NCBI GenBank assembly: GCA_934621385.1
Contig: CAKTUI010000008.1
Location: 2,455-66,454 of the forward strand
DNA length: 64,000 nucleotides
Direction of reading: 5' to 3'
Source of the DNA: an uncultured Kiritimatiellota bacterium
GTDB lineage: Bacteria; Verrucomicrobiota; Kiritimatiellia; RFP12; UBA1067
The notes beneath the pieces were generated by a model. It did no database searches. It was not told the DNA's origin and was given only the letters and a program-made list of their open reading frames with translations. Positions 37,604 to 58,959 of this stretch are shown in pieces. Numbering within the stretch: position 1 is the stretch's first letter; the number at the start of each line of letters is the position of its first letter. The position numbers were made by a program, and so were the translations under genes.

Positions 37604-38149
37604 TTACCAATCCCACCTTTTTGGCCGCGCCCATTTCTCTCTAGGGGCATAACGCGCCGCATGGGGCAAGGCAATCCCGCCAAGGAGGTTGTTCAATTCC
37701 ACAAGTTCAATCGCATCCGGTTCTGCTCCATAACCGCACAGAGACTGATGCGACAGTGCAAATGCCGTAGCTAATACATGAAACATTTTATCATCAATGC
37801 TTAGGCGATCGTGCGCAACCAGTTCGGAGACCGTCATGACTTGCGAGAACCTATATTTGCAATTCTTGTTTGCACTTTCAACGGGCAGTCTTAAGCGATG
37901 GAAAATACTTCCACCACCAGAATAACAAATCGGTCTACCATCTAGTATCTGTTCACACAAGTTCATAAACGGCATAACGCGTATCAAGTCTTGATTCTCA
38001 TATTGCCCTCTCAGAATAGACATAAGATTATCAGCGTCCCCAAATGAGAAATGGAAAAGGGCACTGCGGCGGAAGTTGATTCCGTCGGCACAAAAGCCTT
38101 GATTTGAACGCGGACTGTTACTGGGGGGGGGGGGGTATTTTTTGCACAC
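37604..38149 (-). CDS. Hypothetical protein (181 codons as tracked); 5' end runs through a C13 tract
   Basis: A long ORF in an AT-rich segment with no recognised motifs. The tracked start is a GTG immediately before the homopolymer, so the true start and frame are uncertain. Confidence 0.4.
   Translation of the reverse strand: MCKKYPPPPSNSPRSNQGFCADGINFRRSALFHFSFGDADNLMSILRGQYENQDLIRVMPFMNLCEQILDGRPICYSGGGSIFHRLRLPVESANKNCKYRFSQVMTVSELVAHDRLSIDDKMFHVLATAFALSHQSLCGYGAEPDAIELVELNNLLGGIALPHAARYAPREKWARPKRWDW
38123..38135. repeat. Homopolymer G13 (C13 on the coding strand)
   Basis: Counted directly from the sequence. Confidence 0.95.
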
Positions 38150-43548: not shown

Positions 43549-43715
43549 TATTTTCACCCCTCAGTTTTACGGACATAACTTTCGCTTCAGCATCAGCAAT
43601 GATAAAATCAGACGGGGCAACTGGAAGGAAAGGATGGAGCGGCATAGAAGAGCGAGCCATGTCCTCCGAATCACCTACCTGCCCACATAAAAATGCGCGG
43701 CATCCATCCACGGGC

Positions 43716-44843
43716 TCACCGCGCCCGACGACGCAAGATGCTTCTTAACGCACCCAGTATCGCATCCTCATCCCATTGCGTATTTTCAAGTCCAAACGTA
43801 ATGCGGATCGTGGACTCGGCAATCGCCTTCGGCACCCTAATCGCCTTGAGAACATGAGATACCTGCGTATTCTTCGAGTCACAGGCGGCACCCGTCGAAA
43901 CCGCGATACCCTTCATATCCAGAATATGCATCACTCCCTCAGCCGAATTGCCCGGAAACGCAACACTCACAAACCCCGGCAATCGTTTTGCGTCCGTTCC
44001 ACCAAGATAGACCACATTGGGAAAGAACGACCTCATCCCTTTGCAAAATCTTTCAGCAAGCCTATTCAGATGGACTGTATTCCTTGCCATATTTTCGCAG
44101 TTATACCGCAGAGCCGTTGCCATGCCGACGATTGATGCAACATTTTCCGTTCCCGCGCGAAGGCCGTTCTCTTGTTGCCCGCCATTTAGCAACGGTTCGA
44201 GTTTCATGCCCTTGCGAATATAGAGGAATCCGATGCCCTTGGGACCATTGAACTTATGTGCGCTCGCAGACAGAAAATCAACCCCCGCTTCCTGCACATC
44301 AATCGGGATGTGACCGACTGCCTGAACTGCATCGGTATGGAACAACGCTCCACGTTTATGTGCGAACTCTGAAAGCAAATGAATTGGATTGATTGTGCCT
44401 ATCTCGTTGTTGGCCATCATCACAGAGACAAGTCCAATCCCAGCCGTCCAGACCTTTGAAAGCCGCTCCGGCATGATGTACCCGCCACCATTACCAACTT
44501 TGGGGCGGACAAATATCACCTCGCGGCCTTTACGCGCTTCGCTTGCGGCGGCGTTTAGAATTGCGTGATGTTCATATGACGAAACAAGCAACCCGCCAGA
44601 AGAGCCCTTAATCACCCAATTGTCCGCTTCAGTACCACCACTCGTAAAGAATATCTCATCTGGTTCGGCATTGATACACTCGGCAATCGTCGCTCTCGCA
44701 TCCGCGACCGCCTTTTTCGCCGGTCTCGCCCATCCATGCAGACTTGACGGATTTCCGAAATCCTCCTTCAAGAATGGAAGCATCGCCTCCAACGCCTCTG
44801 GCATCAGAGGTGTTGTCGCGGCATGGTCGGCATAAACTTTCAT
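43716..44843 (-). CDS. Cysteine desulfurase (class V aminotransferase; NifS/IscS/DndA/SspA-like)
   Basis: PLP-lysine motif SAHKFNGPKGIGFLY and active-site Cys loop STGAACDS. Its ATG overlaps the stop of the upstream small ORF (ATGA). G+C is about 40-57% on sampled lines. Confidence 0.85.
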   Translation of the reverse strand: MKVYADHAATTPLMPEALEAMLPFLKEDFGNPSSLHGWARPAKKAVADARATIAECINAEPDEIFFTSGGTEADNWVIKGSSGGLLVSSYEHHAILNAAASEARKGREVIFVRPKVGNGGGYIMPERLSKVWTAGIGLVSVMMANNEIGTINPIHLLSEFAHKRGALFHTDAVQAVGHIPIDVQEAGVDFLSASAHKFNGPKGIGFLYIRKGMKLEPLLNGGQQENGLRAGTENVASIVGMATALRYNCENMARNTVHLNRLAERFCKGMRSFFPNVVYLGGTDAKRLPGFVSVAFPGNSAEGVMHILDMKGIAVSTGAACDSKNTQVSHVLKAIRVPKAIAESTIRITFGLENTQWDEDAILGALRSILRRRAR

Positions 44844-45370
44844 TGGTAAAATCCTTGATACATTCCCAATCCAATTTCTTCTTCAAGCAAATCGGAAATA
44901 CGTTGTTCAACATCCTGTGGGTAATGTGATACTGCCCATCGAAACATTCTACACGTATAAAAACTTTCAGGGAGTTGTCGAACAAATACTTCTGGTATAT
45001 CTTCTTCCGACGGCACATACTCGAATATGCCGCCTGTTACATCTATCTTCCAGTTCTCAAACTCCCAGTGATCTGTTGCTCCTTCACGTGGCAGAACAGC
45101 TATGTGTACATTGTGTGGATAATTTTGATGCTTCGCATAGCCATTCTTGGATACGCCACAGATATAGATGGCATCCCACGAATCTTGTGGAAATTCATCC
45201 ATGACAATCGTTTGTCCAGGCAAAAACTCTTTGTTAAGACGCGAGAACCGTTTGGAGTACTTACCCTTGATTGCGTTTGTGCAATGGTGCATAGGGTTGC
45301 ATCCATGAGCATACTTGGCGTACAGCCACATGAACTTGCTGCCATCGAAATTGTGAGTTAGCCGTATCAT
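44840..45370 (-). CDS. Hypothetical protein (176 aa)
   Basis: An uninterrupted ORF with ATGA overlaps at both ends. Very AT-rich. No motif recognised. Confidence 0.55.
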   Translation of the reverse strand: MIRLTHNFDGSKFMWLYAKYAHGCNPMHHCTNAIKGKYSKRFSRLNKEFLPGQTIVMDEFPQDSWDAIYICGVSKNGYAKHQNYPHNVHIAVLPREGATDHWEFENWKIDVTGGIFEYVPSEEDIPEVFVRQLPESFYTCRMFRWAVSHYPQDVEQRISDLLEEEIGLGMYQGFYQ

Positions 45371-45975
45371 TGGTTGCCATTCTTTGGAGGTTCTGGCGTA
45401 TAGAAAACAAGTCCTTCGCCTTGCTCGTTAAGCAATGAACAAGCTTCGTCTAACGTCTCATTATCGATATCATTCCATGTGTTCAAGTCTTGAAACTTGT
45501 CCATTAGGAAATGTTCGATGCCTGTGTAAGTTGTAAAGAAATGGATTTCATAGAAATTGCAAACGGGTATTAGGTTGATGAACCCATATAAGGAATTATT
45601 GACTTTATTTTCTATGCAATAAACAATGTCCTTTTTTACACTTGAAATATCGACAAATCTAGTCTCTTGACCATGCAGTTGTTTGGCAAATTCATCGTAA
45701 TCATTAAATAGACTCTCAATAGTCGCCAATGAAGTGCCTGCGACGCAATCCCAAAATGAAGTACTATTTACTACTTTTTGCAGAATTTCGCGAGCTATTT
45801 GGTCATTGATTCCGTTAAAACGATATAGAGGAAAGTCGGGAAAATTCCCCAATTCCACCCATATTCCCGATGAATCCATAACAGTAAATTGAACACCCAT
45901 ATCATAAGTTTTGATGATGTTGCCAATCGTCGGCTTTATTCTCGAAAGTAGATTGATTTTTTGCTCTCGTGTCAT
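45367..45975 (-). CDS. Hypothetical protein (202 aa)
   Basis: The start MTREQKINLL is preceded by GGAGGTG. No motif recognised. Confidence 0.55.
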   Translation of the reverse strand: MTREQKINLLSRIKPTIGNIIKTYDMGVQFTVMDSSGIWVELGNFPDFPLYRFNGINDQIAREILQKVVNSTSFWDCVAGTSLATIESLFNDYDEFAKQLHGQETRFVDISSVKKDIVYCIENKVNNSLYGFINLIPVCNFYEIHFFTTYTGIEHFLMDKFQDLNTWNDIDNETLDEACSLLNEQGEGLVFYTPEPPKNGNQ

Positions 45976-45979
45976 CTTA

Positions 45980-46504
45980 TTACACCTCCGCCACCCACGC
46001 TGGAATTGAATATGATTGCCCTGTTGTGGCAAGTAATTGCAAGGCCGCACCTATCCTATGATTCCCATCCAAGACATGGAATCGTCCCATTACAGGATAA
46101 ACAGCGACAGGGAGCTGATAGGTCCCGCTACGCTGAAGAATGGCGATGTGGTATTCCGTACTCTTTCTACAATAGTCATAATCGTATGTAGGATGTCTAA
46201 AGAATAACGTACCGTTATAATTTTGAAGCAGCCCATCGATGTCCGCTAAAGATTGTTGGGTTATATTGAATATGCTTGGTATGAATGATGCAGTTCGCCA
46301 TTTACAGGACGATTGCTCATGTAAGGACACTACAGAGAATATTCTATGCCAGGGCGTGTTGTATGTGAAATCCATGCATGAGTGAAATGGCCAATTGCCC
46401 ATGTCGTTAATGAGAGCCCTTATATACATATCGAACAACTGGTCTGGCATCCTTGAAAAGATGCCGCGCGCAACTGCTATATGCCGTTCTAAATGGTTGT
46501 CCAT
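45980..46504 (-). CDS. Hypothetical protein with a C-terminal ParB/Srx-like DGxHR motif
   Basis: QLPVAVYPVMGRFHVLDGNHRIGAALQLL resembles the ParB N-terminal / DGQHR-type (DndB-related) fold signature. Confidence 0.5.
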   Translation of the reverse strand: MDNHLERHIAVARGIFSRMPDQLFDMYIRALINDMGNWPFHSCMDFTYNTPWHRIFSVVSLHEQSSCKWRTASFIPSIFNITQQSLADIDGLLQNYNGTLFFRHPTYDYDYCRKSTEYHIAILQRSGTYQLPVAVYPVMGRFHVLDGNHRIGAALQLLATTGQSYSIPAWVAEV

Positions 46505-46521
46505 TACAAGTTCCCAATTAT

Positions 46522-46725
46522 TTATATGAACAGCTTGCAGCCTTGGGCCTTGAACTCTTCAATTTTTGCGAGGAGGTCTTCAACGGTCACACCAAGGTTC
46601 TCGGCGAGACACGGGAGGCAAAAGAACTTGGAAACATTCTCGCCAAGTAGTTTCTTGTTCAGACCGACGGCATCCCTGTCGGCCTCTCCTCCACATCCGA
46701 AGCATCTCTCTACTCGTTGTGGCAC
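46522..46725 (-). CDS. Small zinc-ribbon-like protein (67 aa)
   Basis: A CFGCGG ... FFCLPCL pair of CxxC motifs. The GTG start is preceded by AAGGAGG, 2 nt after the brxL stop. Confidence 0.5.
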   Translation of the reverse strand: MPQRVERCFGCGGEADRDAVGLNKKLLGENVSKFFCLPCLAENLGVTVEDLLAKIEEFKAQGCKLFI

Positions 46726-46727
46726 TC

Positions 46728-48215
46728 TTACGCCTCCTTCCGTATCTTGAGAGCCGGCAGATCTTTTCCCCTGTATTGCTCGTTCATAAGGCCCATCTGG
46801 TAGCGGATGGTATAACGCATCTTCATCGCCGGTCTAAAGCAATAACGCACAAAATCCTTCTCGGAGATGTCCGCCGGGGTGCGGACATTCGGGAATAGCA
46901 ATTTTATAAATGCCGTTGAAATGCGTTTGACCGCTTCAGTGTCGCGCTCGTCTGACCCGGACGGCACGTCAATCAATTCGTCAACAACGTGTCTATAGGA
47001 GCTATCGTCACGTAGCTGATGCAGAATCGCCGTAAAATACTCGGAGTTCAAAGCCCATCCGTCGATTTTGAGCGTACTGTTCATGCGTGGGATATTCCAT
47101 CCCTTAATAAAGCCGTGGAAGCGGTCAATCATCGCGGCATCTTGAAACAGTTTAGGTAGATTAGCAAACATATAGGCATAACCATCCTGCTTCATAATTT
47201 CAGGTGCGATGTTGCCGCACAAGACAAATCCGGAGTCCGCAGAGCTGGAGTAATTGCCAACCGAGAACGTCCCTTGCTCCAGATATCCCTGCATTACGCT
47301 CCCCATGCCATCCTCAAAGATCGTCTTTTGAATTTCATCCAAGACGATAAAGTCGTTTTGTCCGACGAGTCCAGACTCACGGCGTCCTGCATCATAGAAA
47401 AGTTTTGCGCGGGTCATCTTGTCGCTGGTGGAAAGCCAGCCATAGCGACTCACTTGCCCGAACAAGTAGGATTTTCCCGTCCCCATCGGAGCAAGCTCCA
47501 TCAAATTGAGGCGTTTTTCCGCAAATGGCAGCACTCGCGAAAGCATGGTCAATTTCATTATTTGCAGATCAGGAAGTTCTGCGTTCTCCGCTTTCGCAGC
47601 ATCATACCCCTCTGCCTTATAGTCAACCGCTCCGAGAATAATGTCAATCCATTCTTGGATCGAAAATTCATTACGTACGTCTTTGTAATAGTTCAAATCA
47701 ATGTCATACGGGCAGAAGTCCCGGAATGAGAGAAGCCTTATCTTACCGGGCATTTTAGGACGCGCCGTATCATCCGGCGGACGATATCCAAGCTCCAGCA
47801 TTCCCCACGTCTCATGCCCAGATGCCAACTTGCCTCTGCACTTGTCCCAGACATCAGCATCAATCATCGTCTCGCGATTCCGAAGACCAAAATCAGGCAA
47901 AGAGAAAGTCACTTCTCCAGTGACAACGTCTATGTTTACAACAATCTTAGCGAGTAGCTTGACGTGCTCAAAGCCAACCACGATTCTGTCTTTGATGCGC
48001 GTCCAGTCATCGTGTTTTGGTATGAATTCGTGGACAAAAGAAAGCATTTCTCCTGCGTCGAACACGCCGTCCGCATTCTCGAACCTTTGCAATAGCCAGT
48101 CGCGCATAAACGACGGCAACCCTATCGTCTTGAAGAGACTTGTCTGCGTCAAGTCCTTGAACACTGCCATCGACTCGAAGCACTTACGAAGTTTATCTGT
48201 GGTTTCCTGTGTCAT
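46728..48215 (-). CDS. brxL: BrxL-like ATPase, short form (no Lon-protease-like C-terminal domain)
   Basis: Walker A LAPMGTGKSYLF and Walker B FIVLDEIQ. The N-terminal region LPSFMRDWLLQRF resembles BrxL / TIGR02688-type proteins (from memory). Strong AAGGAGGT RBS. Confidence 0.65.
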   Translation of the reverse strand: MTQETTDKLRKCFESMAVFKDLTQTSLFKTIGLPSFMRDWLLQRFENADGVFDAGEMLSFVHEFIPKHDDWTRIKDRIVVGFEHVKLLAKIVVNIDVVTGEVTFSLPDFGLRNRETMIDADVWDKCRGKLASGHETWGMLELGYRPPDDTARPKMPGKIRLLSFRDFCPYDIDLNYYKDVRNEFSIQEWIDIILGAVDYKAEGYDAAKAENAELPDLQIMKLTMLSRVLPFAEKRLNLMELAPMGTGKSYLFGQVSRYGWLSTSDKMTRAKLFYDAGRRESGLVGQNDFIVLDEIQKTIFEDGMGSVMQGYLEQGTFSVGNYSSSADSGFVLCGNIAPEIMKQDGYAYMFANLPKLFQDAAMIDRFHGFIKGWNIPRMNSTLKIDGWALNSEYFTAILHQLRDDSSYRHVVDELIDVPSGSDERDTEAVKRISTAFIKLLFPNVRTPADISEKDFVRYCFRPAMKMRYTIRYQMGLMNEQYRGKDLPALKIRKEA

Positions 48216-48234
48216 CTTAAGATACCTCCTTCAA

Positions 48235-50409
48235 TCAAAAGAAATCGTCCTTTTTAATTTGTGCGCCACCGCTCTTCACCACGAAACGCACATCGTTGAT
48301 TTTTGTATTCCCGTCATAAACAACCGCAACATGGTCACCTGCAGAAGGCTTGGGGATTCGGACAGTGTAGCGTCCCGTTTCATTGCCGTCGGCAATCGCT
48401 GCATAGCTGATTCCATCGAATCTGACAGAAGGCGACATCAATGTTGAGGCGCAGAACAGCTGAAGAGTTATTTCCGTATCGCGGAATGTTACCTTGAATT
48501 CGTCTTCCACAAGGCGTACATGAACATTCTTGTCGAGCAATTCAAATTCTATGACCGGCACTACCATTTCCTCCAATGTAGCACCTCCGTGGATTTCAAC
48601 ATCGCCTTTCCTGCCGCCTTTGAAACGGTCGTATCCAGCAAGAACGTGCCATTTCTCGTCATCACTTTCCGTAACACAAGCCGGAAGGACGCCATCGAAC
48701 TCGCTTTTCCGACAGCATCTTCCACCATGTTTTCCTTTCTCCGGCAATTCCCACACCGTTTCAGACTTGGAAATCACAGCAAGGCGAGTCGCTCCGTGAT
48801 CGCTTGTGAGAACAACCTTGCTGCCGGGCTTCTTGCGAAGTCGCATTGCTATTGCATTTATAGACTCCTCGACAACTATCAATTCATGCGGCAGTTCCGT
48901 GGCTGCACCAGTTGACGGCTCGTCGTATTTCTCAAAGTCACCATGCTTTATCTTGTCTAGTCTGGATACAGGAGGCATCTTTTCGCCCTGCCATTCATCA
49001 TAGAAAGAGCGATTGACGCTAGTTATGGAAGGTAATTTCGCCCTGGCAGGCGTGACTTTCAATTTAAGGCCAAGGCGCTCTGCGGCAGATTGAATAAAGC
49101 CAAGGAATTCACAGCCGAGAGCGTCTATCCAGCAAAGAGCAACGCCATTGGTGCCAATACTTTCAAGAACGGACTCGCGTGTCGGCAAAGTGAACTGCGG
49201 ACGGTCTTCGGCAAAATCACGAGCAGCATCCATGAAGCTAGGCTCAATTCGCCCTAATAATTTTTGCCGTTTATAATCCTGAAAGTACTTCGCAAGCACC
49301 TCCACGAACTCACCACTCGAAAAGGAAAATCCGCGCCAGTAGTTCCACATCGCTGGGTATACATTTTCCACAGACACAGGAACCTCTCCTGCGTCCACAA
49401 TCAGCCGTGTTATCTCCTCGCGCTCCACCTCTGTGCAGTCCGTCATGTAGCGGATGCGTTCCGATGGATTGGCAATCCGTCGTGATTCGCGGATGTACTC
49501 AGTCACATCAGCCTTGTCAAATTGCGGAACAATCTTTTTCCTTGCATCATAGAGCCGAGCAAAACGACCATCGTCAACTGAAACATCAAGGATTGCGCAG
49601 AGAAGATTTCTGTGCCACTCTGAATATTGCCTGGTTTTCGATATGGCAAATGCAATATACTGGTCGTCGCCAGTACCGTCTTCAAGGAATCTCAAGAGTG
49701 AATCCGGACTTGACAAGCTATCATCGCGAGCTCGCTCATCATTCAGGAATGCCGTCCATTGTTTTTCTGGGAACATTGTCTCCAGGACGGGACTTTGAGG
49801 ATGCCGTTCCTTATACACTTCATATGCGGAATCAATACGGCGACACCAGTTTGTGTTTAAGGGAACAACTGTCGTTATGGCAGTTATCGAATTATCGCAA
49901 CCGTCCTCAAGAATCCGCAAGAGCGCCCTAAAGCCATTTGCTTTTGCGTTCTTGATAAGGCCGTCTCGAAAAATACGTAGCGACCAATGTTTTTCGGATT
50001 TTGCGAAGGACACGCCTCTTCGGCCCAGTATTCGAGGATCGTTTCTTGACTCTTCTTCGATAAACTCATGCACGCCCCATACTGGTACGACAAGACGAAG
50101 GCTGTGCAAAGGAAGCCCAAATATCCATTTCTTCACTTCTCTGTCGCCAGAAAGCGCAGCGTATTCGCCAATGCCAAGAAGAATCGCCTTGCCCTCCATG
50201 TGTGTAAGCGTGTCGCCAAGAGCGTCCAAGTCTGGAAGCGCATCGGATGCTCGGCAGAAATCGCTGACACGTACCTTCTCGCATGAGGAAAGCGATGTGA
50301 CAAGCATTGATAGGTCTGTGGACGCATCAAACGCCACGAAAAACGGGTTAGTCGCACCATTCCCGTTCAGATATTCCTGCGCAGCATTGACAATATCCAT
50401 GATCATCAT
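48235..50409 (-). CDS. pglZ: PglZ alkaline-phosphatase-superfamily protein
   Basis: 724 aa with CWIDALGCEF and VVLTSDHGATRL motifs characteristic of the PglZ domain. ATGA overlap with brxC. Confidence 0.8.
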   Translation of the reverse strand: MMIMDIVNAAQEYLNGNGATNPFFVAFDASTDLSMLVTSLSSCEKVRVSDFCRASDALPDLDALGDTLTHMEGKAILLGIGEYAALSGDREVKKWIFGLPLHSLRLVVPVWGVHEFIEEESRNDPRILGRRGVSFAKSEKHWSLRIFRDGLIKNAKANGFRALLRILEDGCDNSITAITTVVPLNTNWCRRIDSAYEVYKERHPQSPVLETMFPEKQWTAFLNDERARDDSLSSPDSLLRFLEDGTGDDQYIAFAISKTRQYSEWHRNLLCAILDVSVDDGRFARLYDARKKIVPQFDKADVTEYIRESRRIANPSERIRYMTDCTEVEREEITRLIVDAGEVPVSVENVYPAMWNYWRGFSFSSGEFVEVLAKYFQDYKRQKLLGRIEPSFMDAARDFAEDRPQFTLPTRESVLESIGTNGVALCWIDALGCEFLGFIQSAAERLGLKLKVTPARAKLPSITSVNRSFYDEWQGEKMPPVSRLDKIKHGDFEKYDEPSTGAATELPHELIVVEESINAIAMRLRKKPGSKVVLTSDHGATRLAVISKSETVWELPEKGKHGGRCCRKSEFDGVLPACVTESDDEKWHVLAGYDRFKGGRKGDVEIHGGATLEEMVVPVIEFELLDKNVHVRLVEDEFKVTFRDTEITLQLFCASTLMSPSVRFDGISYAAIADGNETGRYTVRIPKPSAGDHVAVVYDGNTKINDVRFVVKSGGAQIKKDDFF

Positions 50410-53400
50410 TCCTTTGAAAGGATCGCAAGCCCTACATCAAGCGAATTAACGACAAGATCTACGAGGTACTGCTTTGCTTCATCCGCACTCATTGCCCTTA
50501 CTTTTCCGCGCACTCTCTCAGCACAGTTCAAGTTGTATTCGCTTTCGGCAAGTTTCTGGAGCGTTGCTTCAAGACGCGGATCGACAAGCCAGCTGTCTGG
50601 GTCTGCACTCAACTTGTTCAGTCGAGACCTAACGGACGCAAGGTCTGTCAGCACTACCGCATAGCGGCCGAGAACGCCGCGTCGGAATGCATCGTCAGCC
50701 TTTTCCCCGTCAAACCAACAAAACACTTCTGGGTGTACAGTAAAGAAATCGAGTGCCGCATCGACATTTGCAACGGACGATTCCTTGTTATTCAAAGCAC
50801 CTATTGCCTTACGGACGCCGTCCAGAAGTGGCGTCCCCTCTGCCGGCACCATAGCGAGAACTGGTGTTGCAAATTGCTTCGCCCATGCCGACGGAGTTGT
50901 CGTGCCGGTTTCTTCATTCCACAGCGATAGCAACTTTGTCCGTCCCTGTTGACTTTTAATTTCAGAGACCTTCTGGACGAGCATCTGCTCGTAGGTCGGC
51001 TTATCGGCAAGGAACGACGATTTGTCCAACCCAGTAAGATAAAGATCATCCATCTCCTGTGTGTCAAGCCCTGAAAGTTGCTCGCTGTAAGTTGCCTTGA
51101 ACAAAGCAAGGCATCCTTCAAGCATATCACGGTTGACATCACCCATATCGGTGATTTCACGGAAGAACGCATCTCGCCTGTCATTCTGTTCCAGCCGCCC
51201 CCCAGATGCAATGTCCTTTAGAAGGCCAAGGAAGGTCTTGGATTGCGGCTTAAGTGCCACAAGAGTGGCACAGGGGATACGTATCGTGCGCGTTTTATCC
51301 CGCCACGCTTCCATACACTCCCAGAAAGAATTCACCGGCGTTATGAATCCACGCTTGGACGATTCCGCAACTATGCGGTAGTCCCTCAAAAGTGCGCGTA
51401 TTTCATTTTCTCCAGTCTCACGATGCCAGAGCCATGCGCCGTCAGTACCGAAACAACGACGGACATCAGCAAGAGGGTCGGAAGCGTTTATTTCTTCCGC
51501 CGTCTTTCGGAAAAGCCCATCATCAAATTCGTCAAGCCAAGCGTTCATTGCTTTAGTGGCATTTTCCTTTGTGAACAGAGCCGAAAGCCTGGCCTCCACA
51601 CCGGGATCACCTGCTGCCATGCGTCCAATCTCGGTTGCAACGCCGGAGAGCGTGGCACCTTTCTGATTGGCCGGATTGGTGAGGAGAGTAAATTGCTCGA
51701 TGTAGCGTTCCGAACCGACGGACTCAGGCAATGCCTCGAAACACCACAAGGGGTATTGGAAGTCGCGTATTCGCACGGCCAAATCATGCGCCACAATGTC
51801 TATCGAGGCATTCTCCCCAAGGTTGAACACCGCCTTTGCAAGATCTGCGAACCGCCGCTGTTCCTCTGTCAGAACTCCGATGTATGCTTCGTGATATCTT
51901 CCGCTACCAGTGCCGAGAACCTTCTTAAAACAGGCGAGAATCGCCTCTGTCATGTTCGCCACAGTGAGAGGCGGACTTTCTCCGTCTCGGACGAAGCGAT
52001 AATCCCCGCCCACATATTCTTTGAGGAGATATCCCACAAGAAAACCGTGCAACGCAGTAGGCATGAATCCAGCATCGAAGAGTGTTTCTATAATTTCGCC
52101 AAACTCGACTCTGCCTTCACCGCCAGACTTGAATGCGTATTTGAGCTTCTGCTCTACCTTTGACTTGATCTTGGAGATTGTCTGTGTAGGCGCGACTTTC
52201 CAATAATCCACTTTGTCTTTAACAGAGCCTATAAGGGCGTTTTCTGATGCGGCATCCATCTTGCCGCCTTTCTCCCCATTCGGGAGATGCCCAAGGCCAC
52301 CATACACGCCGGCGGACACCTCGGCTTTTGTCGCTTGGTTGAACTGAGTGTCTTTCAAGCCACGCTCAAACTCAAGCGCAAGTGGATACTTTTCAAGTAC
52401 CGACAAACGCATCTCTTCTCCAACCTCAGAAGCCCCGTGGCAAACCACACCAGTTGCATTTCGCTTCGTCCGCACGGTAAACGCACCAGTTGCAATTTTG
52501 TCTCTCCATGCGGAAAGTATCTTCTCCGCCTCGGATAATGCATTGTTGGACTGTTGCGCGTCTTTGCGAGCATACCAATTTGCTCTGGCCTTGTATTCAG
52601 CCCACTTTGCGAAATCGCCATCATCCAATTCCACGGAAGTCGCATCGATGAATACTACATTGCCGCTTCTCGGATCTGCGAGTGCCTTGCTTATCGCCTC
52701 TTTTGCAGCAACTGCATCCAGACTGTTCCGGCCAACCACAATCATGGCTCGCATCCTATAGTTCTTGGCATCTTGAGCCAAGAGCTGTCCAAGAATCTGC
52801 GAGAACGAATCCGGACCAGCAAGGCGTATGTCGAATCTCTCCTCCAATGGACGCGACAGCCGAAGCACCTCTTCGCGTTGCCAATCCTTCAGCAGTTCCT
52901 TCGTCTTGGTTGTATGGAGGTAATTCTCCTTGAGTTTTTCAATTTCCTGCAAATCGCGACCACCGGTGGCCATTGGTGCCTGATAGACACGCTTCCCATT
53001 CACCTCTTCCACAAAAAGAATCTTGTCGGAGTTTGCAAGCTTGTTGGCAAGTGTTATTCCCGTGCCGCTTTCGAGACCCTCCACGCCCTCGAACGCAAGG
53101 CGAAGATTCTCCTCTGTCGCAAGAAACTCCGGCGGATTGTTGAGTTTCTTTGCAAGCGCCTGAAATATGAGAATAGTTTTCAGAACACGCTTCTCGGCAG
53201 AAACGAGCTTGCTGGATTTGTCGGGATACACTTCGAGAATCGCCCTTACTTGTGCATCTAGATTGCTCTTCCCGGTTTCGCCGGTACCTCTCAGCGTCTT
53301 GCCAGTCTCGTAGAAGTAGTCCCAAAGCAGATCAACGCCTAGCACGTCACCGTTCTCTGGGGAATGGTTCTTTATGTACCACTTAAACGCACGGGCATCC

Positions 53401-54620
53401 TCTTCCGCAGCAATAAACGTGAACATACTCCGTTGATTAGAGTCAAAAAGCGCGGCGATGTTCTTGAGAGCCAATGCGGCATATGGATGAAAAGGCAGCA
53501 TAGCACGAAATACGCCCTCATCAACGTCCTTAAGCATCTTCGCAATCTTCCGCCGCGGTTCCTCCATGCGCTCGTTCAAATCGTCAGAAAGCGCATCCCA
53601 CTCCTGTTTGAAAGCAGGCTTCACCTTCAGCGCATCGCCGATCAGCTCAAATGCAATGTTTTCAGGAAGGCTTATCTCCATCGTCGGCTTGAAACGGTCG
53701 ACAATAATTTGTGCAGAATTGTCGTTTTCCGGCAGGAACGATGTCGTGAAATGGGTTACAATCACAAGATTGAATCTAGTCAAGCCGGAAAGTTCCGCAA
53801 GCGACTGCAATGTATCGAGCTTCGTCTTGTTGTTCTTAAAGAACGCAGAGAACTCATCCCACACAAGTATGAGATGCAGATTGTTCTTCTCTACAGTTTC
53901 GCGTATCCAGGATGCAAGGTCTTCCTTTGAGAATCGTAGCGCTGTTATACCCTTGTCCTTGGCGAGACGACGGATTTCCTTAAGCAGATCGTCCGCCATA
54001 CCGCTTCCCTTTAGTGTCGCAAGCACATCGTCCGCAGACTTGCCGGCGAAGCATCCCTTATGGCAATATGGCGATTCCTTAATAAGCGCGTTGAAATAAG
54101 CTCGTTCTGTATTGCCCTCCAACCACTTGGCAATGCCACCACGCAGGGTCGCACCCGCATCGTATGGTACGCCGGAGTCCTCCAGCGCCTTTGAAAGACT
54201 TGAAAAGACGGCCTCAACAAGGTCTTCCGGGCCGGATATTGCATCAGACCCGTGCCGAGCGGCAACAACGATTTTTCTCGCCTTCCGATGACCGGCGAGT
54301 TTCTTTTTAAGGTCGCCCTCTGCTTTGAGAGGCGCATAATCATCGAAGTATGTGTTGAAATCAACATCGCTGCAGGTCAGAAGGCTACGAAGCGTCCACG
54401 TCACCTGGCTCTTGCCTGTACCATACGCGCCATGAACCCAAATGGAGTGTTTGTCCATCTCGCTGCCGCGCGCAAGCATCTTCTCAAGACGCTTCAAAAG
54501 CGCGACGAAGGTCTTGTGGGGGTATGTCGCTTTCCATCCGTCCGGATGCGCATCAAATGTGGCCTGTGTAATCTCTGGCGGATTGTACTTAAGCTGGAAG
54601 TAATCGCTGTAGTTGGACAT
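50406..54620 (-). CDS. brxC: BrxC/PglY-like P-loop ATPase (1404 aa)
   Basis: Walker A VHGAYGTGKSQ and Walker B LILVWDEF near the N-terminus of a very long protein. Start set to the ATG at 54620, 9 nt after AGGAGG. The tracked start at 54641 overlaps brxP. Confidence 0.75.
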   Translation of the reverse strand: MSNYSDYFQLKYNPPEITQATFDAHPDGWKATYPHKTFVALLKRLEKMLARGSEMDKHSIWVHGAYGTGKSQVTWTLRSLLTCSDVDFNTYFDDYAPLKAEGDLKKKLAGHRKARKIVVAARHGSDAISGPEDLVEAVFSSLSKALEDSGVPYDAGATLRGGIAKWLEGNTERAYFNALIKESPYCHKGCFAGKSADDVLATLKGSGMADDLLKEIRRLAKDKGITALRFSKEDLASWIRETVEKNNLHLILVWDEFSAFFKNNKTKLDTLQSLAELSGLTRFNLVIVTHFTTSFLPENDNSAQIIVDRFKPTMEISLPENIAFELIGDALKVKPAFKQEWDALSDDLNERMEEPRRKIAKMLKDVDEGVFRAMLPFHPYAALALKNIAALFDSNQRSMFTFIAAEEDARAFKWYIKNHSPENGDVLGVDLLWDYFYETGKTLRGTGETGKSNLDAQVRAILEVYPDKSSKLVSAEKRVLKTILIFQALAKKLNNPPEFLATEENLRLAFEGVEGLESGTGITLANKLANSDKILFVEEVNGKRVYQAPMATGGRDLQEIEKLKENYLHTTKTKELLKDWQREEVLRLSRPLEERFDIRLAGPDSFSQILGQLLAQDAKNYRMRAMIVVGRNSLDAVAAKEAISKALADPRSGNVVFIDATSVELDDGDFAKWAEYKARANWYARKDAQQSNNALSEAEKILSAWRDKIATGAFTVRTKRNATGVVCHGASEVGEEMRLSVLEKYPLALEFERGLKDTQFNQATKAEVSAGVYGGLGHLPNGEKGGKMDAASENALIGSVKDKVDYWKVAPTQTISKIKSKVEQKLKYAFKSGGEGRVEFGEIIETLFDAGFMPTALHGFLVGYLLKEYVGGDYRFVRDGESPPLTVANMTEAILACFKKVLGTGSGRYHEAYIGVLTEEQRRFADLAKAVFNLGENASIDIVAHDLAVRIRDFQYPLWCFEALPESVGSERYIEQFTLLTNPANQKGATLSGVATEIGRMAAGDPGVEARLSALFTKENATKAMNAWLDEFDDGLFRKTAEEINASDPLADVRRCFGTDGAWLWHRETGENEIRALLRDYRIVAESSKRGFITPVNSFWECMEAWRDKTRTIRIPCATLVALKPQSKTFLGLLKDIASGGRLEQNDRRDAFFREITDMGDVNRDMLEGCLALFKATYSEQLSGLDTQEMDDLYLTGLDKSSFLADKPTYEQMLVQKVSEIKSQQGRTKLLSLWNEETGTTTPSAWAKQFATPVLAMVPAEGTPLLDGVRKAIGALNNKESSVANVDAALDFFTVHPEVFCWFDGEKADDAFRRGVLGRYAVVLTDLASVRSRLNKLSADPDSWLVDPRLEATLQKLAESEYNLNCAERVRGKVRAMSADEAKQYLVDLVVNSLDVGLAILSKE

Positions 54621-54633
54621 TACTGTTTCCCTC

Positions 54634-56910
54634 CTATACATTGAACAAGGCTATGACGTTAGCGGGAGTCTTGTCATCGGCGAGACGAACAAGCTCCAGG
54701 TCGTGTGTAGTGGTAAACGTAACGAAATCTGGATTTGTCCGTGAAAGCCCATTCAGGAGCGCCTCCATTTCGTCGCGCGCGAGCGCAAATATCTGCGCCG
54801 GGCTAACCCCCTCCGCCTCAACCGTGAAGTCCATAAGGCGTGAGAGAGGAAACTCCCAATATCCGCCACACTTTTCAGCGAACTTGTAGAGCGCATAAAG
54901 CATGACAAGCGGCGACGGCGCAACCGTCTTCGTTCGAGTGAGCGAAACGATGTCCTGTCCCTTTGATACGACCCGACCAAAGTGGAAGCGCGTACTTAGC
55001 GGTATGTTGCACAGCCTTCCGAATGCGCGAATAACCGACATCACCCCATCTGGCTTAAGCCCAGTGACAGCTATCATGTCGTATAGTTCCTGACGGGGGT
55101 ATTCGCGCCCCACATCCATATTCCGCACATACCATTCGATTTGTGGATTGTCATATGAGAGGTTGGTGAGAATCAAACCCCATGTATCCTCTGCGTTCAT
55201 GCCTATCCGCCTTGCTAATTCAAAGAATGGAGTTGCCTTATTCTTTGCAAGCAGTCCGGCATCTGAAAGGAAGCGTTTAAATTTAGTTATCTGCATAGGC
55301 CCCAGCGAGTTGTTTGACACAAAGTCAGAACCTCGGGAAAAGAAATCCGTGACCCATTCTGGCTTCGGGGCGTGCGTAGCGAATGTGTTTATGCTTTTCA
55401 TGTCTATTCTCTCCAGTGTTGCCTTCTTAAGTGAATCGGCTCGATAGCAGCCTTTCTCAATTTCATGGCATAGTCCGCAATGTATGCAATTGTCAATGTG
55501 TAGCCCATTCTTAAAAGAGAGCGCACCTGAACGACAATTCGCCTCACATTCACCGCATCCAACGCAATATGATGCCTTATAAAAACATTGTTTGAGCCTC
55601 CTACCAAGAGAGGTCTTCGTGAGTGCGGACGGATACGATACTATCAGCACACCATCTGATTCTGTGGCTTCTAAATCAACAGGTCCATTTAGTGTCTTGA
55701 TCCATTCTCGCCAGTCTGTTGTTGGATTAAGAAGGCGAAGTGTCGTACGGCCATCTTTGGTTGCTTCTTGTATCTTCTCTTCGTTACCCTTAATGTCCCT
55801 GCCGTTCTTTCGAGCGACCCATCCACATTTCGCAATATATTCATTTGTGTCAGGGCAACTAATGCTACTCTTTACGTAATTAATAAATCGGTCAACGCCA
55901 TCCTTATAGGCAGTATGCTCAAAATAATCAGAACGGCCACCTGCACCGAGGGGACAAAAAAGACACCCTACGCGCACCATTCCCTTTACATAGGCACCGT
56001 TAATGAGTAATTGACGCGAGAAAATATAAATCCAAACCTCTGCGCTTGACCATTCCTGCATCGCATTGAAGGAGTATTGCCCCATCTGTTTCTTACTAAA
56101 ATTCAGATAGTCATACTGTGAGCGAGCATCACTCTCATGTCCTCTCACTCCAACAAAAGCCATTCCCGTATAGTCTCTTTTCCCGAGTATCTCGCGGATT
56201 TTGAGCGTCTGAGGGACGGACTTATGGACGGTACAGCACCATCTAAGAGCATGTGATGGCGGTCCGAAGAGCCGCCACGATTCCTCTGGCGTAAAACAGG
56301 ACTTTGCACGGTAAAACGCGATACCATCCGCCTTGCATCTCGCTTCCACAGCCTCAACGGCTTTATAGGTGTCAGGGAATTCCATCCCCGTATCGCCAAA
56401 CACAACCATGAATGCGGTGCGGGGCAATGCGCGACGGACGAGTTCCAGAAGCGCAATCGAATCTTTGCCGCCCGAAAACGCCACATGGAAACAATCAAGC
56501 TTCTTTTCGTATTTGCGATAGATGTCGTATATCTTCTTGACGGTGAGCGTTTCCAGCGCCTCAATACGGAGACGGTTTTTTGCGATCATCGCCTCAACAT
56601 CCACGGGGATGAGTGTTGTTCCCTTTGGAAGTATCTCTTTGCCGGCCTCGTCCCTCAAGAGTTCAATTTCTGGTTTTACATAGAGGGAGCCGCCATTCGT
56701 CTTGGCTACCTTTTGACCGCGATACCAATAAAAATTCGACTCGGCCCAGAGGTACGGGGCGTCACTCGTGTTGTCATATTTCCAGAAATCTCCAAACCCC
56801 AACAAGTCGAGTTCTGCCGCCCATACTGGTCTGGGTTCTTTTGAGAATTCCGAAAGCGAATCCGCAAGTAGCAGGCCTCCTGTTTCTGGATCATGTGAAT
56901 ATGTGTACAT
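54634..56910 (-). CDS. brxP: BrxP-like PAPS-reductase / PP-loop ATP pyrophosphatase with an Fe-S cluster region and a ~250-aa C-terminal domain
   Basis: PP-loop AFSGGKDSIALLEL. PAPS-reductase-family body. Ferredoxin-like CVGCGECEANC...CIHCGLCHEIEKGC. The real start MYTYSHDPETGG at 56910 overlaps the upstream stop (TAATG). Confidence 0.8.
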   Translation of the reverse strand: MYTYSHDPETGGLLLADSLSEFSKEPRPVWAAELDLLGFGDFWKYDNTSDAPYLWAESNFYWYRGQKVAKTNGGSLYVKPEIELLRDEAGKEILPKGTTLIPVDVEAMIAKNRLRIEALETLTVKKIYDIYRKYEKKLDCFHVAFSGGKDSIALLELVRRALPRTAFMVVFGDTGMEFPDTYKAVEAVEARCKADGIAFYRAKSCFTPEESWRLFGPPSHALRWCCTVHKSVPQTLKIREILGKRDYTGMAFVGVRGHESDARSQYDYLNFSKKQMGQYSFNAMQEWSSAEVWIYIFSRQLLINGAYVKGMVRVGCLFCPLGAGGRSDYFEHTAYKDGVDRFINYVKSSISCPDTNEYIAKCGWVARKNGRDIKGNEEKIQEATKDGRTTLRLLNPTTDWREWIKTLNGPVDLEATESDGVLIVSYPSALTKTSLGRRLKQCFYKASYCVGCGECEANCRSGALSFKNGLHIDNCIHCGLCHEIEKGCYRADSLKKATLERIDMKSINTFATHAPKPEWVTDFFSRGSDFVSNNSLGPMQITKFKRFLSDAGLLAKNKATPFFELARRIGMNAEDTWGLILTNLSYDNPQIEWYVRNMDVGREYPRQELYDMIAVTGLKPDGVMSVIRAFGRLCNIPLSTRFHFGRVVSKGQDIVSLTRTKTVAPSPLVMLYALYKFAEKCGGYWEFPLSRLMDFTVEAEGVSPAQIFALARDEMEALLNGLSRTNPDFVTFTTTHDLELVRLADDKTPANVIALFNV

Positions 56911-58817
56911 TAGCGTTTCTCCAATTCTTTCATTCTGGAAACTACCGCCCCGACGGTTTTTGTCGAGCGACGCAGAACACATTGCGTCGCAACGAGAAAG
57001 TCTCCAACTTCTTCCACATCTGCCGCGACACCGCAACGAAGAGCTATGGTAGCAAAGGCATCCTCCGCGCTCCATTCGCAGTTCATGCACGGAACGACTG
57101 CACCCGATACATCTCTTGCAGGAACAGACGGTGACACAAGGCGAAATCCTGTGCTGGCTCGACGCAAAAACGCCTCAAGCAGAAACTCATTCCAAGCGAA
57201 CCCAGGAACCGCAGGAAAGTCCGCCAGATTGCCAAATGCACCGAAAGGCATTATGCATCCTTCACATATGTCCGAAATTGATTTTTCAATCGACGAAACA
57301 TCAAATGTGATCAGCGCCGGCGAAACAAAACATTCCCGGTCGACACGCACCATTTCTTCATGTGCGGTCTTCAGTGCTAACCACGGTGCAATGTTGTATT
57401 CTTTTGCGACTGTCTCTAGTTGTTCAAGCGACACATCAGGCCTTTCGCGCAAGAATGCATGAAGAGGAATCTGTCCATCTATACTTGCACCTTTTGCACA
57501 TACGATCTGCCCGTGAATGTCGAATTGCTCTGATAAAAAACGCTGGAAGAATGAGCGTCGAAGCGCACTATCCACCAACCTTCGGTCGTTCATGGCTGCG
57601 CTGTCATTGAGACACAATTGAGAAAGGGAGAAAAATCCCTCGGCTTTGATTGCGGTTTCACATTGCGATTTCCCGCGAGAGACCTCCGCATCATCGAATT
57701 CGATCCGTGATACGATGGCATACGAATTCTTACCGTTCCTGACCAAATCGCTCAACCTCCTACACAGACTACGAATAAACGCCATGTCCACATAGGGCAC
57801 TCGCTTAGAAACCACACTTATGTCAATAACAGGACCCCTTTGTGACATGATAATTGAATTAAAGTGCTGAGTAATCGACCCCGCCCACTTGGGCACGAAG
57901 CATTCCCCTTCAATCTGATATGTATCTTGCGCCTCCCGCATAATTGCCTCTCGAAACATTTCGGGAGAGATGATGCCAATTTGCATAAGTTCTTGTCCAT
58001 GGAACTCCATCAGGCGCGAAAACTGAAATATGGAGTATCCTTGTCCGACAAGTCTTTCGATAAGCTTACGCCACCCGCCATCTTTGGATGATGGCCGAGG
58101 AAACACTTTCCCGTCGTGAATAACGCCTATTCTCGGAAAGACAGAATTGAAGTCAAAGTCCTTCGGCAAATCCTCGTCGAAATACTCGTGGTAAAACTTG
58201 CGGATTTTATTACGGTCGATTATCGAACTGGGTCTGACTCCGTTTGGGAACTCCGACTCCAACAATTCAGCAATCTGATTTTCATAGGGGAATTCATTAC
58301 CATCCCAATCGCATCGCCCCGGCATCGCTTCCGTCCTTTCCTCTCCATCGGCCGAATGGGGCGGACATAGGAGACCTTCGCTTTCTTTCGCGTCACTTTT
58401 CTCCGCTGAACGAAAATCTCTGTATGTGACCCGGACATCATCGTTGGACAAATTGCACCACTCAATAAGCTTGAGGGCTCGCAAGAAAGGAGTGCTACCC
58501 GACCCATTCAAGTCGATGTAACAATCCCGATCAATCTGATAAGGGTTGGCCATCCCGTACCGCGTTGTCCGCAACCACCCCAGATCCTTGGTTCTGATGA
58601 GCCGCTGCAATTGCCACCCCTTGAAGGTCCACAGGTGCTTGGCAAGCGAAACGAGGACATCATTCGCAGAGTTCACCGGAACCGTCTTCCCGATGATTTG
58701 CAAAGCGCTCAGTTGCGCCCTTGGGGGCATTTTCTTCACTGCGTCAACCAGTGGGCAGATATAGGATAGGCCTGCTGTTGAACAGCCATTGGATTCCGAA
58801 AACTCACAATCAGGCAT
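56910..58817 (-). CDS. Hypothetical 635-aa protein, first gene of the BREX-like operon
   Basis: An uninterrupted ORF with RBS GGAGGA 10 nt upstream of the ATG. Its stop overlaps the brxP start. I recognise no catalytic or binding motif. Confidence 0.7.
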   Translation of the reverse strand: MPDCEFSESNGCSTAGLSYICPLVDAVKKMPPRAQLSALQIIGKTVPVNSANDVLVSLAKHLWTFKGWQLQRLIRTKDLGWLRTTRYGMANPYQIDRDCYIDLNGSGSTPFLRALKLIEWCNLSNDDVRVTYRDFRSAEKSDAKESEGLLCPPHSADGEERTEAMPGRCDWDGNEFPYENQIAELLESEFPNGVRPSSIIDRNKIRKFYHEYFDEDLPKDFDFNSVFPRIGVIHDGKVFPRPSSKDGGWRKLIERLVGQGYSIFQFSRLMEFHGQELMQIGIISPEMFREAIMREAQDTYQIEGECFVPKWAGSITQHFNSIIMSQRGPVIDISVVSKRVPYVDMAFIRSLCRRLSDLVRNGKNSYAIVSRIEFDDAEVSRGKSQCETAIKAEGFFSLSQLCLNDSAAMNDRRLVDSALRRSFFQRFLSEQFDIHGQIVCAKGASIDGQIPLHAFLRERPDVSLEQLETVAKEYNIAPWLALKTAHEEMVRVDRECFVSPALITFDVSSIEKSISDICEGCIMPFGAFGNLADFPAVPGFAWNEFLLEAFLRRASTGFRLVSPSVPARDVSGAVVPCMNCEWSAEDAFATIALRCGVAADVEEVGDFLVATQCVLRRSTKTVGAVVSRMKELEKR

Positions 58818-58944: not shown

Positions 58945-58959
58945 GGGGGGGGGGGGGGG
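58945..58959. repeat. Homopolymer G15 (C15 on the operon strand) in the predicted 5' leader
   Basis: Counted directly. It lies 128 nt upstream of the ATG at 58817. Confidence 0.95.

Follow-up and report, generated by a model that had tools for sequence, protein, structure and literature searches.

A probable phosphorothioate-based BREX type 4 island with a ParB/Srx-fold cassette inserted into its operon in an uncultured Kiritimatiellota bacterium

Type 4 of the bacteriophage exclusion (BREX) systems, in the 2015 classification of Goldfarb et al., is reportedly defined by the gene order brxP-brxC-pglZ-brxL. Here we describe a locus of this type in a 64,000-nucleotide (nt) stretch of DNA from an uncultured Kiritimatiellota bacterium (contig CAKTUI010000008.1, positions 2,455 to 66,454; this whole stretch is called the window), where the four genes form part of a block of ten genes on the minus strand, g1 to g10. 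The host is related to metagenome-assembled genomes (MAGs) of the Kiritimatiellia/Lentisphaerota, of the Planctomycetes-Verrucomicrobia-Chlamydiae (PVC) group, from animal guts. We read the locus as a chromosomal defence island with a phosphorothioate (PT)-based BREX type 4 system, most likely acting by modification plus exclusion, into whose operon an accessory cassette of three genes, g7-g8-g9, has been inserted; the probability of this reading is about 0.75.

Yuan et al. (bioRxiv 2024; Nat Commun 2026; PMC12914056) showed genetically and by liquid chromatography-mass spectrometry (LC-MS) that BREX-4 makes PT DNA. The earlier note on this DNA, made from the letters alone, knew of no demonstrated mechanism or modification for type 4, a statement that is now outdated. 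In that paper, PT dinucleotides were detected in bacteria whose sole PT-type genes are brx genes, and PT was demonstrated in the BREX-4 system of Bacteroides salyersiae. Deletion of brxC abolished PT, and complementation restored it. In Bacteroides thetaiotaomicron, PT was rebuilt with brxP, mcrA and brxC on a plasmid and the host SufS as the sulphur donor. Modification thus takes no more than brxP, brxC and a cysteine desulfurase, whereas mcrA, brxZ, brxL and one more gene are dispensable for it. BrxP is described there as an SspD-SspB fusion. The determinant of the PT motif is left unassigned by Yuan et al., and the exclusion of unmodified DNA is likewise left open. In 56% of the type-4 taxa, Rakesh and Krishnan (NAR 2026; PMC12839542) report a cysteine desulfurase, the "sixth component", which is frequently accompanied by a small gene for a zinc-finger protein. 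DndB is the ParB member of the Dnd systems, present in 52% of the Dnd taxa, and the rapidly evolving subunits DndG and SspB with multiple winged helix-turn-helix (wHTH) domains have been discussed (PMC10853773). Stand-alone ParB/Srx domains are DNases or NTPases regulated by nucleoside triphosphates (NTP) in conflict systems (PMC5512222, PMC10853773). The type of the system, the PT chemistry and both partners, the desulfurase and the zinc finger, are therefore already published; what is new here is the unannotated family of g1, a variable accessory slot with the pairing of ParB/Srx-fold and g9-family proteins, and a mosaic segment of BrxP.

The ten open reading frames (ORFs) have intact starts and stops, and remeasurement in the window gave their limits and all nine junctions exactly as the earlier note wrote them (Table 1). 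We take them to be genes rather than chance ORFs, because the core matches curated models, and g1, g7, g8 and g9 have conserved homologues on other contigs. The block is a low-GC island, with a GC content of about 0.49 against about 0.61 in the surroundings (0.37–0.52 per gene, 0.59–0.63 in the flanks). The terminator of the trpGD-C-B-A operon lies on one side and a Fic/DOC gene on the other, with mnmE and parB in the chromosomal vicinity; relatives of the operon occupy differing genomic contexts. The edges of the island have neither flanking direct or inverted repeats nor a tRNA, no integrase was found among the flank ORFs examined, and no Rfam family was found in the entire window.

The ten proteins were searched against the Pfam, PADLOC and NCBIfam models. 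BrxP matches the PADLOC BrxP model over its full length (1.4e-231, residues 1–757), a second BrxP model at residues 513–729, Pfam PAPS_reduct (5.9e-28; 98.5 bits with a cut-off of 22.5; residues 143–320, SGGKDS at 146) and Fer4 (residues 447–464, with CVGCGECEANC at 449 and CIHCGLC at 475). It is predicted to be the sulphur-inserting enzyme, consisting of a PP-loop phosphoadenosine-phosphosulphate (PAPS) reductase domain, 4Fe-4S ferredoxin-like clusters and a C-terminal SspB/DUF4007-like DNA-binding region. BrxC, a large P-loop ATPase homologous to SspC, matches PADLOC BrxC-PglY (1.8e-201, residues 3–1403) and the SspC models down to 2.1e-20, with the Walker A motif VHGAYGTGKSQ at 62–72 and the Walker B motif LILVWDEF at 250–257; it is distant from the NCBIfam BREX_BrxC model, which gives only 23.9 bits (cut-off 400) at residues 35–276 only. 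PglZ, of the alkaline-phosphatase superfamily, scores 335.1 bits with the NCBIfam model NF033445 for the BREX-4 PglZ (cut-off 140) and 1.4e-90 with PADLOC PglZ, and has matches to DUF7864, DUF7863 and DUF7862 and TSDHG at 535. BrxL matches TIGR02688 (345.3 bits, cut-off 329.3), PADLOC BrxL (5.6e-190), Pfam BrxL_ATPase (1.2e-96) and BrxL_N (9e-24), with GTGKSYLF at 245 and VLDEIQ at 291. This is the short type-4 form, with the N-terminal DNA-binding part and the AAA+ ATPase and without the Lon protease domain.

In this search by hidden Markov models, which the earlier note had suggested, all four proteins match BREX models, two of them above the NCBI cut-offs, and each motif that the note quoted is located at a defined residue position. 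Judging by these matches, the locus is a bona fide BREX type 4 core with the defining gene order and intact catalytic motifs. The lack of a PglX-type methyltransferase holds, as none of the ten proteins matches a methyltransferase family in the three collections. No BrxA or BrxB model is matched either, in agreement with the note, which saw no partners of that size; but this is not a true absence, as PMC12839542 describes fusions, of a BrxA-like DUF4007 domain with BrxP and of a BrxB-like domain with PglZ.

Could such a locus be mainly an epigenetic PT system, with little or no phage exclusion, PglZ and BrxL being regulatory or vestigial and PT serving redox or gene regulation? For PT, nothing is required beyond BrxP, BrxC and a desulfurase, with brxZ and brxL dispensable, and the anti-phage activity of the gut-type variants "awaits investigation" (PMC12914056). 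However, both PglZ and BrxL are intact down to the catalytic motifs, and no genes of the operon are more conserved, BrxL being 84–98% identical across loci whose g1 proteins are 43–76% identical; moreover, the locus is a horizontally moving low-GC island, as is usual for defence systems. We consider the epigenetic explanation very unlikely and retain that of a defence island.

The variable part of the operon becomes clear from its relatives (loci and contigs denoted by L numbers). In the three relatives covering both ends, L005, L007 and L008, there is a seven-gene operon, g1-brxP-brxC-pglZ-brxL followed by the zinc-finger and cysteine desulfurase genes. L005 and L007 are Kiritimatiellae MAGs whose cores are about 90% identical to that of the window. 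In both, the stop codon of the zinc-finger gene overlaps the start of the desulfurase gene as ACATGA, and approximately so in L008. In the window, 1.67 kilobases (kb) with g7-g8-g9 lie exactly at this point, and at its 3' end the cassette restores an ATGA coupling with the desulfurase. The slot is empty in L005 and L007, has a 190-nt filler in L008, and contains g7 with an unrelated gene for a protein of 314 amino acids (aa) in L010–L012, where the type-4 core is very distant (BrxP 30%, BrxC 23% identity). All three genes, g7-g8-g9, occupy it in the window, in L016 (58–86% identity in the core, 68–76% in the cassette), in L023/L024 and in L086. A 702-nt fragment, L017, covers only the last part of the zinc-finger gene, g7 and the beginning of g8. 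The cassette has a GC content of 0.37–0.44; in L016 it is 0.42 against 0.58 in the core. The cassette g7-g8-g9 is not ancestral, and is inserted precisely at the variable junction between the zinc finger and the desulfurase. The 314-aa protein of L010 was considered as a counterpart of g8 or g9 and shows no similarity to either.

The earlier note had regarded all six genes outside the core as additions that make an extended variant. This applies to the three AT-rich genes, the true add-on, whereas g1 and the genes for the zinc finger and the desulfurase are already part of the operon of seven genes. Similarly, of the four small ORFs called AT-rich, g7, g8 and g9 (GC content 0.44, 0.37 and 0.43, respectively) are so, and g6 (0.52) is like the rest of the island. 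The comparison of gene order that was proposed then thus has a mixed outcome: the leader, the zinc finger and the desulfurase recur with the core, and the cassette occurs in only part of the relatives, the closest ones lacking it.

The g7 gene encodes the only cassette protein with a recognisable fold. Its AlphaFold2 (AF2) model has a mean predicted local distance difference test score (pLDDT) of 87.6 and a predicted template-modelling score (pTM) of 0.81. In Foldseek searches, the first 41 PDB matches are all of the ParB/Srx fold, the best being PadC (6ryk, E-value 0.018, probability 0.99), and the neighbours include PadC, sulfiredoxin, SbnI, SerK, KorB, ParB and Noc. The top match and most named matches in BFVD are also ParB/Srx (best 7.7e-4), and some are "DNA-sulfur modification-associated". 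The motif LDGNHR is found at residues 145–150; D146, G147, H149 and R150 are invariant in the family and match the nucleotide pocket of the superfamily, and the g7 profile matches SbnI at the DGxHR motif. The fold E-values are modest, there is no match to Pfam ParB_N, and no DndB match in PADLOC or NCBIfam. The model fold together with the motif assigns g7 to the ParB/Srx superfamily.

We found 16 homologues of g7. Some occur in the BREX-4 slot (L010, L016, L023 and L086). Others are in type I restriction-modification (R-M) loci, in the order HsdM-HsdS-RadC-g7 in L018 and L087 and HsdS-RadC-g7 in L013–L015, with hsdS at the contig start; downstream of the RadC-g7 pair there is RhuM in L013–L015 and a Schlafen/AlbA_2-HATPase_c_4 gene in L018. 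In L019 the g7 relative adjoins AbiH. The RadC (JAB) and g7-like genes directly 3' of type I R-M genes form a previously unreported RadC-ParB/Srx pairing. A scan of metagenomes with the g7 alignment yielded only three true homologues. The other matches were rejected as members of a different ParB/Srx-like family of about 365 aa that shares with g7 the YVLDGNHR motif only. This family (L092, L100, L102, L104 and others, all JGI metagenome contigs) is widespread and has the motif PPVxLYxIKDEYYVLDGNHR as in g7; its members are fused to an Lrp/AsnC ligand-binding domain at the C-terminus or, in L153, preceded by a Usp domain.

The g8 gene encodes an acidic protein (isoelectric point 4.5, GC content of the gene 0.37) with only three homologues in 5.8 billion clusters, always with g9 following. 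It has no family match in Pfam, PADLOC or NCBIfam and no PDB match; a PDB hit to a CytB endotoxin (E-value 0.053, 44 residues) was judged to be due to chance. The family of g9 is larger, with at least 171 representative clusters at E-values up to 1e-3, and a Pfam domain was found in none of ten members tested. The residues H29, C30, Y69, C71, G72, N87, H89, C140 and R141 are invariant in the family alignment. The PDB profile search was empty, and there is no match in Pfam or PHROGs v4 even for the viral members.

Members of the g9 family were found in 60 IMG/VR viral contigs, but none in the GenBank records of cultured phages. In 51 of these 60 contigs, a gene with ParB_N and/or one with ParB_N and a methyltransferase domain lies within four genes of it. 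These partners are a ParB_N protein of about 200 aa and a ParB_N+Methyltransf_23 protein of about 465 aa (phrog_5475, function unknown). In some of the viral contigs the genes for the terminase large subunit and the portal protein are nearby. A recurrent phage module (L025–L084, e.g. L029, positions 4005–6465) consists of ParB_N, then ParB_N+Methyltransf_23, then the g9-family gene. In phages as well as in the cassette, the g9 family accompanies ParB/Srx-fold proteins, and this is the best hint of a joint action of g7 and g9.

An alternative is that g7-g8-g9 is an autonomous hitch-hiker, that is, a defence, addiction or counter-defence module of its own, of phage or mobile origin, which settled in a permissive junction and does nothing for BREX-4. 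The closest cassette-less relatives, L005 and L007, keep an otherwise intact operon, the distinct lower GC content persists across diverged copies of the cassette, and g8 and g9 with a divergent g7 occur in L021 and L022 without an adjacent BREX core, once beside a transposase of an insertion sequence (IS). Still, even there the cassette accompanies the desulfurase, and every cassette-bearing BREX-4 locus has the same slot, the same orientation and the ATGA coupling to the desulfurase, although their cores are 58–86% and 23–42% identical. The type I R-M and AbiH neighbourhoods of the g7 relatives and the frequency of the g9 family in viral contigs also suit a hitch-hiker, while g7 and g8 were not found in the IMG/VR viral contigs. 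Neither the DNA of the cassette nor its proteins gave a match to genomes of cultured phages or to PLSDB plasmids. On balance, an autonomous element is possible but doubtful, and we keep to an accessory cassette embedded in the BREX-4 operon.

The IS, with a DDE_Tnp_1_2 transposase, lies in L021 (positions 7975–12251) directly upstream of a truncated g7-like gene; g8, g9 and the desulfurase come next, and there is no BREX core in the vicinity. L021 is either a decayed BREX-4 locus or a case of the cassette and the desulfurase moving as a unit.

The g6 gene encodes a four-cysteine zinc finger (CFGC at 8, CLPC at 36) with a tail resembling a helix-turn-helix (HTH) and weak HTH/repressor matches. 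It is 75–96% identical in L005, L007, L008, L009, L016 and L023 and 50% identical in the distant L010. By fold and synteny, g6 appears to be the regulator-like small zinc-finger partner of the desulfurase described for type-4 BREX (PMC12839542). The g10 gene encodes a cysteine desulfurase of the NifS/IscS type (PADLOC SspA 4.4e-117, DndA 1.9e-116; Pfam Aminotran_5 1.6e-75), with the SAHK motif of the lysine binding pyridoxal phosphate (PLP) at 194 and the catalytic-cysteine motif GAAC at 318, and is the probable sulphur donor for PT synthesis. The two genes are adjacent in L005, L007 and L008 and are parted by the cassette in the window.

The position of the cassette next to g10 allows one more explanation, in which g7-g9 and the desulfurase constitute a sulphur-handling sub-module, the g9 cysteines relaying persulfide to BrxP and g7 performing ATP-dependent sulphur or serine chemistry, as in sulfiredoxin or SbnI/SerK. 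Indeed, these three proteins are among the nearest fold and sequence matches of g7, g9 has three invariant cysteines and two invariant histidines, and g8-g9 are coupled to the desulfurase and kept with it even without a BREX core. The desulfurase of the window is 83–84% identical to those of the cassette-bearing L021 and L023, compared to 73–77% for the cassette-less L005 and L007, despite the roughly 90% identity of the cores of the latter two. In L010, which has g7 and lacks g8-g9, it is 75% identical to that of the window, no closer than in the cassette-less loci. On the other hand, no desulfurase is seen among the 15 largest neighbour clusters of the viral g9 relatives, 51 of 60 of which adjoin ParB_N genes, and in the type I R-M loci the relatives of g7 are not partnered by a desulfurase; furthermore, the majority of type-4 BREX and Ssp/Dnd systems do without a relay of this kind (PMC12914056). 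Because of the phage contexts the sulphur-relay idea for g9 was down-weighted, and the sub-module seems unlikely compared with an accessory cassette.

Beyond the desulfurase, the distant L010 locus (positions 12670–15784) has an unannotated 330-aa gene, a gene with a PapZ_C domain and a Schlafen/AlbA_2-HATPase_c_4-HTH gene. The last one is the kind of BREX auxiliary effector described in PMC12839542.

The following scheme may be suggested for a PT-based defence island with an accessory cassette. By homology to the Bacteroides system, g10 would take sulphur from cysteine, and BrxP, with its PP-loop, Fe-S clusters and SspB-like winged-helix tail, would together with the BrxC ATPase insert it, at a short motif, into the backbone of the host DNA. 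The exclusion arm against unmodified incoming DNA would consist of PglZ and of BrxL, an ATPase without the protease domain, g1 and the BrxP tail may provide DNA recognition, and g6, given its fold and synteny, could be the small regulator-like partner of the desulfurase. The cassette would be an embedded accessory module, in which an NTP-regulated ParB/Srx nickase or NTPase serves as a regulator or else as a backup effector. We hold this role of the cassette with low confidence; it is suggested by analogy with DndB, the N-terminal domain of SspE, the ParB/Srx DNases and NTPases (PMC10853773, PMC5512222) and the genes lodged in R-M operons.

Several points weigh against this picture. PT modification, the PT motif and phage exclusion are all ascribed to the locus by homology, and no role can be assigned from sequence to g8 and g9, as they have no detectable fold or family. 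Transcription as a single operon is suggested by the spacing of the genes (–4 to +19 nt), and the scan of the region for consensus promoters and terminators gave site counts not above the shuffled expectation. The relatives of g7 in non-BREX loci mean that the cassette may act independently of BREX, and in L021 and L022 the cassette with the desulfurase, the g7 there being divergent, is found without the core. Finally, the set of relatives comprises five loci from the genome-collection scan and one to three places fetched per protein look-up.

The leader gene g1 has no match in Pfam, PADLOC, NCBIfam, PHROGs or PDB sequences, and the same is true for its longer homologues P0003, P0008, P0022, P0036 and P0044. 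None of its 47 homologues has a Pfam domain. Wherever the region was recovered, in seven distinct loci, a homologue lies directly upstream of brxP (L001, L002, L003/L004, L005, L007, L008, L009 and L085). The AF2 model built on 37 sequences (pLDDT 87) features an N-terminal alpha/beta domain (residues ~18–140), a disordered linker (141–175) and about six winged-helix repeats (residues ~177–580), each made of three helices and a beta-hairpin. The best Foldseek matches are tandem winged-helix proteins, UFL1 (3.6e-6) followed by SelB, Stn1, STK19 and Dcc1. The N-terminal domain, conserved over residues ~20–133, is retained at 24–40% identity in 16 more distant homologues and at 77–98% in three close ones. 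The length of the family varies from 450 to 1075 aa due to a variable insert between this domain and the wHTH array, both ends being conserved. At 43–76% identity, g1 has diverged more than any other gene of the operon, as compared with 84–98% for BrxL.

From its modelled fold and synteny, g1 is probably a clade-typical multi-winged-helix DNA-binding partner of an unannotated family. It is functionally reminiscent of DndG and SspB (PMC10853773), although not a sequence member of either family. An identification of g1 as BrxR, BrxA or DndG was dismissed on sequence grounds, as no model matches, and the functional analogy alone remains. No mention of a g1-like leader was met in the parts of PMC12914056 and PMC12839542 that were read or term-searched, and "tandem wHTH" gave no match in the latter.

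BrxP is a mosaic protein. Compared with L085, which shares the upstream DNA and has a 99% identical g1, it is 92–100% identical at residues 1–250 and 100% identical at 701–750, but only 32–34% at residues 301–450 and 30% at 601–650. The same pattern is seen in L001, L005 and L002, whereas BrxC stays at 92–98% in L001, L005 and L085. Overall, the identity over residues ~250–650 drops to 30–58%, while the operons compared (L085, L001, L005 and L023) agree at 92–100% in the ends of BrxP, in BrxC and in BrxL. This indicates recombinational swapping of the segment. Since the target-recognition domains of R-M systems swap likewise, BrxP residues ~250–650, together with g1, are a candidate specificity determinant for the PT motif.

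The partners of g7 differ between loci: they are g8 and g9 here and the unrelated 314-aa protein elsewhere, and in the R-M loci g7 is flanked by RadC and by RhuM or a Schlafen-like gene. Tentatively, and with odds that we regard as less than even, the junction between the zinc finger and the desulfurase might be a hot spot of PT-type BREX operons that recruits a previously undescribed g7 module with interchangeable partners as an NTP-regulated guard, regulator or backup effector within self/non-self systems, g9 being a new phage-carried family and BrxP residues ~250–650 with g1 a swappable determinant of the PT motif.

Table 1. Coordinates of the operon genes and other features in the window, with the measured junction to the next gene of the operon
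Feature	Position	Strand	Size	Junction or remark
G15 homopolymer (C15 on coding strand)	58945-58959			128 nt upstream of g1 ATG, within ~600-nt gap past trpA terminator
g1, leader	56910-58817	minus	635 aa	TAATG, 1-nt overlap
brxP	54634-56910	minus	758 aa	13 nt with AGGAGG
Mosaic segment of brxP	~54960-56160			residues ~250-650
brxC/pglY	50406-54620	minus	1404 aa	ATGA overlap
pglZ (brxZ)	48235-50409	minus	724 aa	19 nt with AAGGAGG
Start region of brxL	48209-48229		21 nt	resembles start region of g8
brxL	46728-48215	minus	495 aa	2 nt
g6, zinc finger	46522-46725	minus	67 aa	17 nt; GTG start
g7, ParB/Srx fold, cassette gene 1	45980-46504	minus	174 aa	4 nt
Start region of g8	45969-45989		21 nt	resembles start region of brxL
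g8, acidic orphan, cassette gene 2	45367-45975	minus	202 aa	ATGA overlap
g9, Cys/His-rich, cassette gene 3	44840-45370	minus	176 aa	ATGA overlap
g10, cysteine desulfurase	43716-44843	minus	375 aa	
Weak terminator-like hairpin and T-run	43696-43712	minus		directly 3' of g10 stop
Fic/DOC gene	42577-43533	minus		182 nt downstream of g10
G13 run	38123-38135			in 5' end of 181-aa ORF, encodes PPPP
181-aa ORF	37604-38149	minus	181 aa	
XRE-type HTH gene	37008-37541			HTH_3 2.9e-09

Some other features of the region deserve mention. The hairpin after g10 is a possible end of the transcription unit, only suggestive as the site counts do not exceed the shuffled expectation. The Fic/DOC gene, on the same strand past this hairpin, has an N-terminal excisionase-type HTH (HTH_17), an intact HPFQDGNGR motif and an intermediate GC content of 0.56. 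Absent from the related loci, it is probably an accessory gene of its own, placed at the edge of the island. Upstream of g1, contig L085 starts within the G15 tract (CCCAGTAACAG...), so the assembly breaks at the tract; this homopolymer might switch the operon by phase variation, or it may be a mere sequencing problem. Apart from it, the window has a single long G/C run, the G13 tract, in an ORF that has no Pfam match. The 37–38 kb patch around it has a low GC content (0.51), adjoins the XRE-type gene and may be a second phase-variable accessory locus. Over 21 nt, the sequences around the ribosome-binding site (RBS) and the start of g8 and of brxL share 86% identity (GGAGGT.T..TAAGATGACAC on the coding strand), which may be due to chance or may be a trace of the cassette joining.

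The discovery is incremental, given what had been published on the type, the chemistry and the desulfurase and zinc-finger partners. Nevertheless, near-identical operons that differ almost only in the BrxP segment and g1 are a natural experiment on motif specificity, and the same operon with and without the ParB/Srx cassette offers a clean way to probe embedded accessory genes. Four unannotated families (g1, g7, g8 and g9) are added to the map of defence-island components.

PrrC is an accessory effector inside a type Ic R-M locus. Like it, and like the BREX auxiliary effectors of PMC12839542, the cassette lies inside an operon for self/non-self discrimination, and relatives of g7 are situated between hsdS and downstream accessory genes (RhuM, Schlafen-like). 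The difference is that the cassette contains no recognised nuclease, HEPN, Schlafen or OLD-family domain, ParB/Srx being its sole recognisable fold, and its effector role is putative.

The DndABCDE system is resembled in the DndA-like desulfurase, the PP-loop sulphur-inserting enzyme and the ParB/Srx-fold g7 inside a PT operon, which echoes DndB. However, there is no DndD or DndE match, and BrxP scores 25.3 bits with the DndC model TIGR03183 (cut-off 290.4). DndB is about 360 aa long, about twice the length of g7. With its 174 aa, g7 has DGNHR instead of DGQHR, a distinct N-terminal half and no match to a DndB model, and it is also found in non-PT loci.

The likeness to SspABCD-SspE is seen in the desulfurase, which matches SspA (4.4e-117), in the PAPS-reductase domain of BrxP (SspD, 8.5e-13) and in a region of BrxC (SspC, 2.1e-20). 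In contrast to that system, the locus has no separate SspB, the ten proteins match no SspE or SspFGH model, PglZ and BrxL replace the restriction arm, and the BREX scores are far above the Ssp ones.

With BREX type 4, the locus shares the same four genes in the defining order, intact motifs, strong model matches and the lack of PglX. It differs from the operon of B. salyersiae in having neither mcrA nor brxR, and its host belongs to the PVC group, not to the Bacteroidota. The cysteine desulfurase and the small zinc finger are the same as in the extended set found in 56% of the type-4 taxa (PMC12839542). To this set the locus adds the conserved 635-aa multi-winged-helix leader g1 and, between the zinc finger and the desulfurase, the three-gene cassette centred on a ParB/Srx-fold protein.

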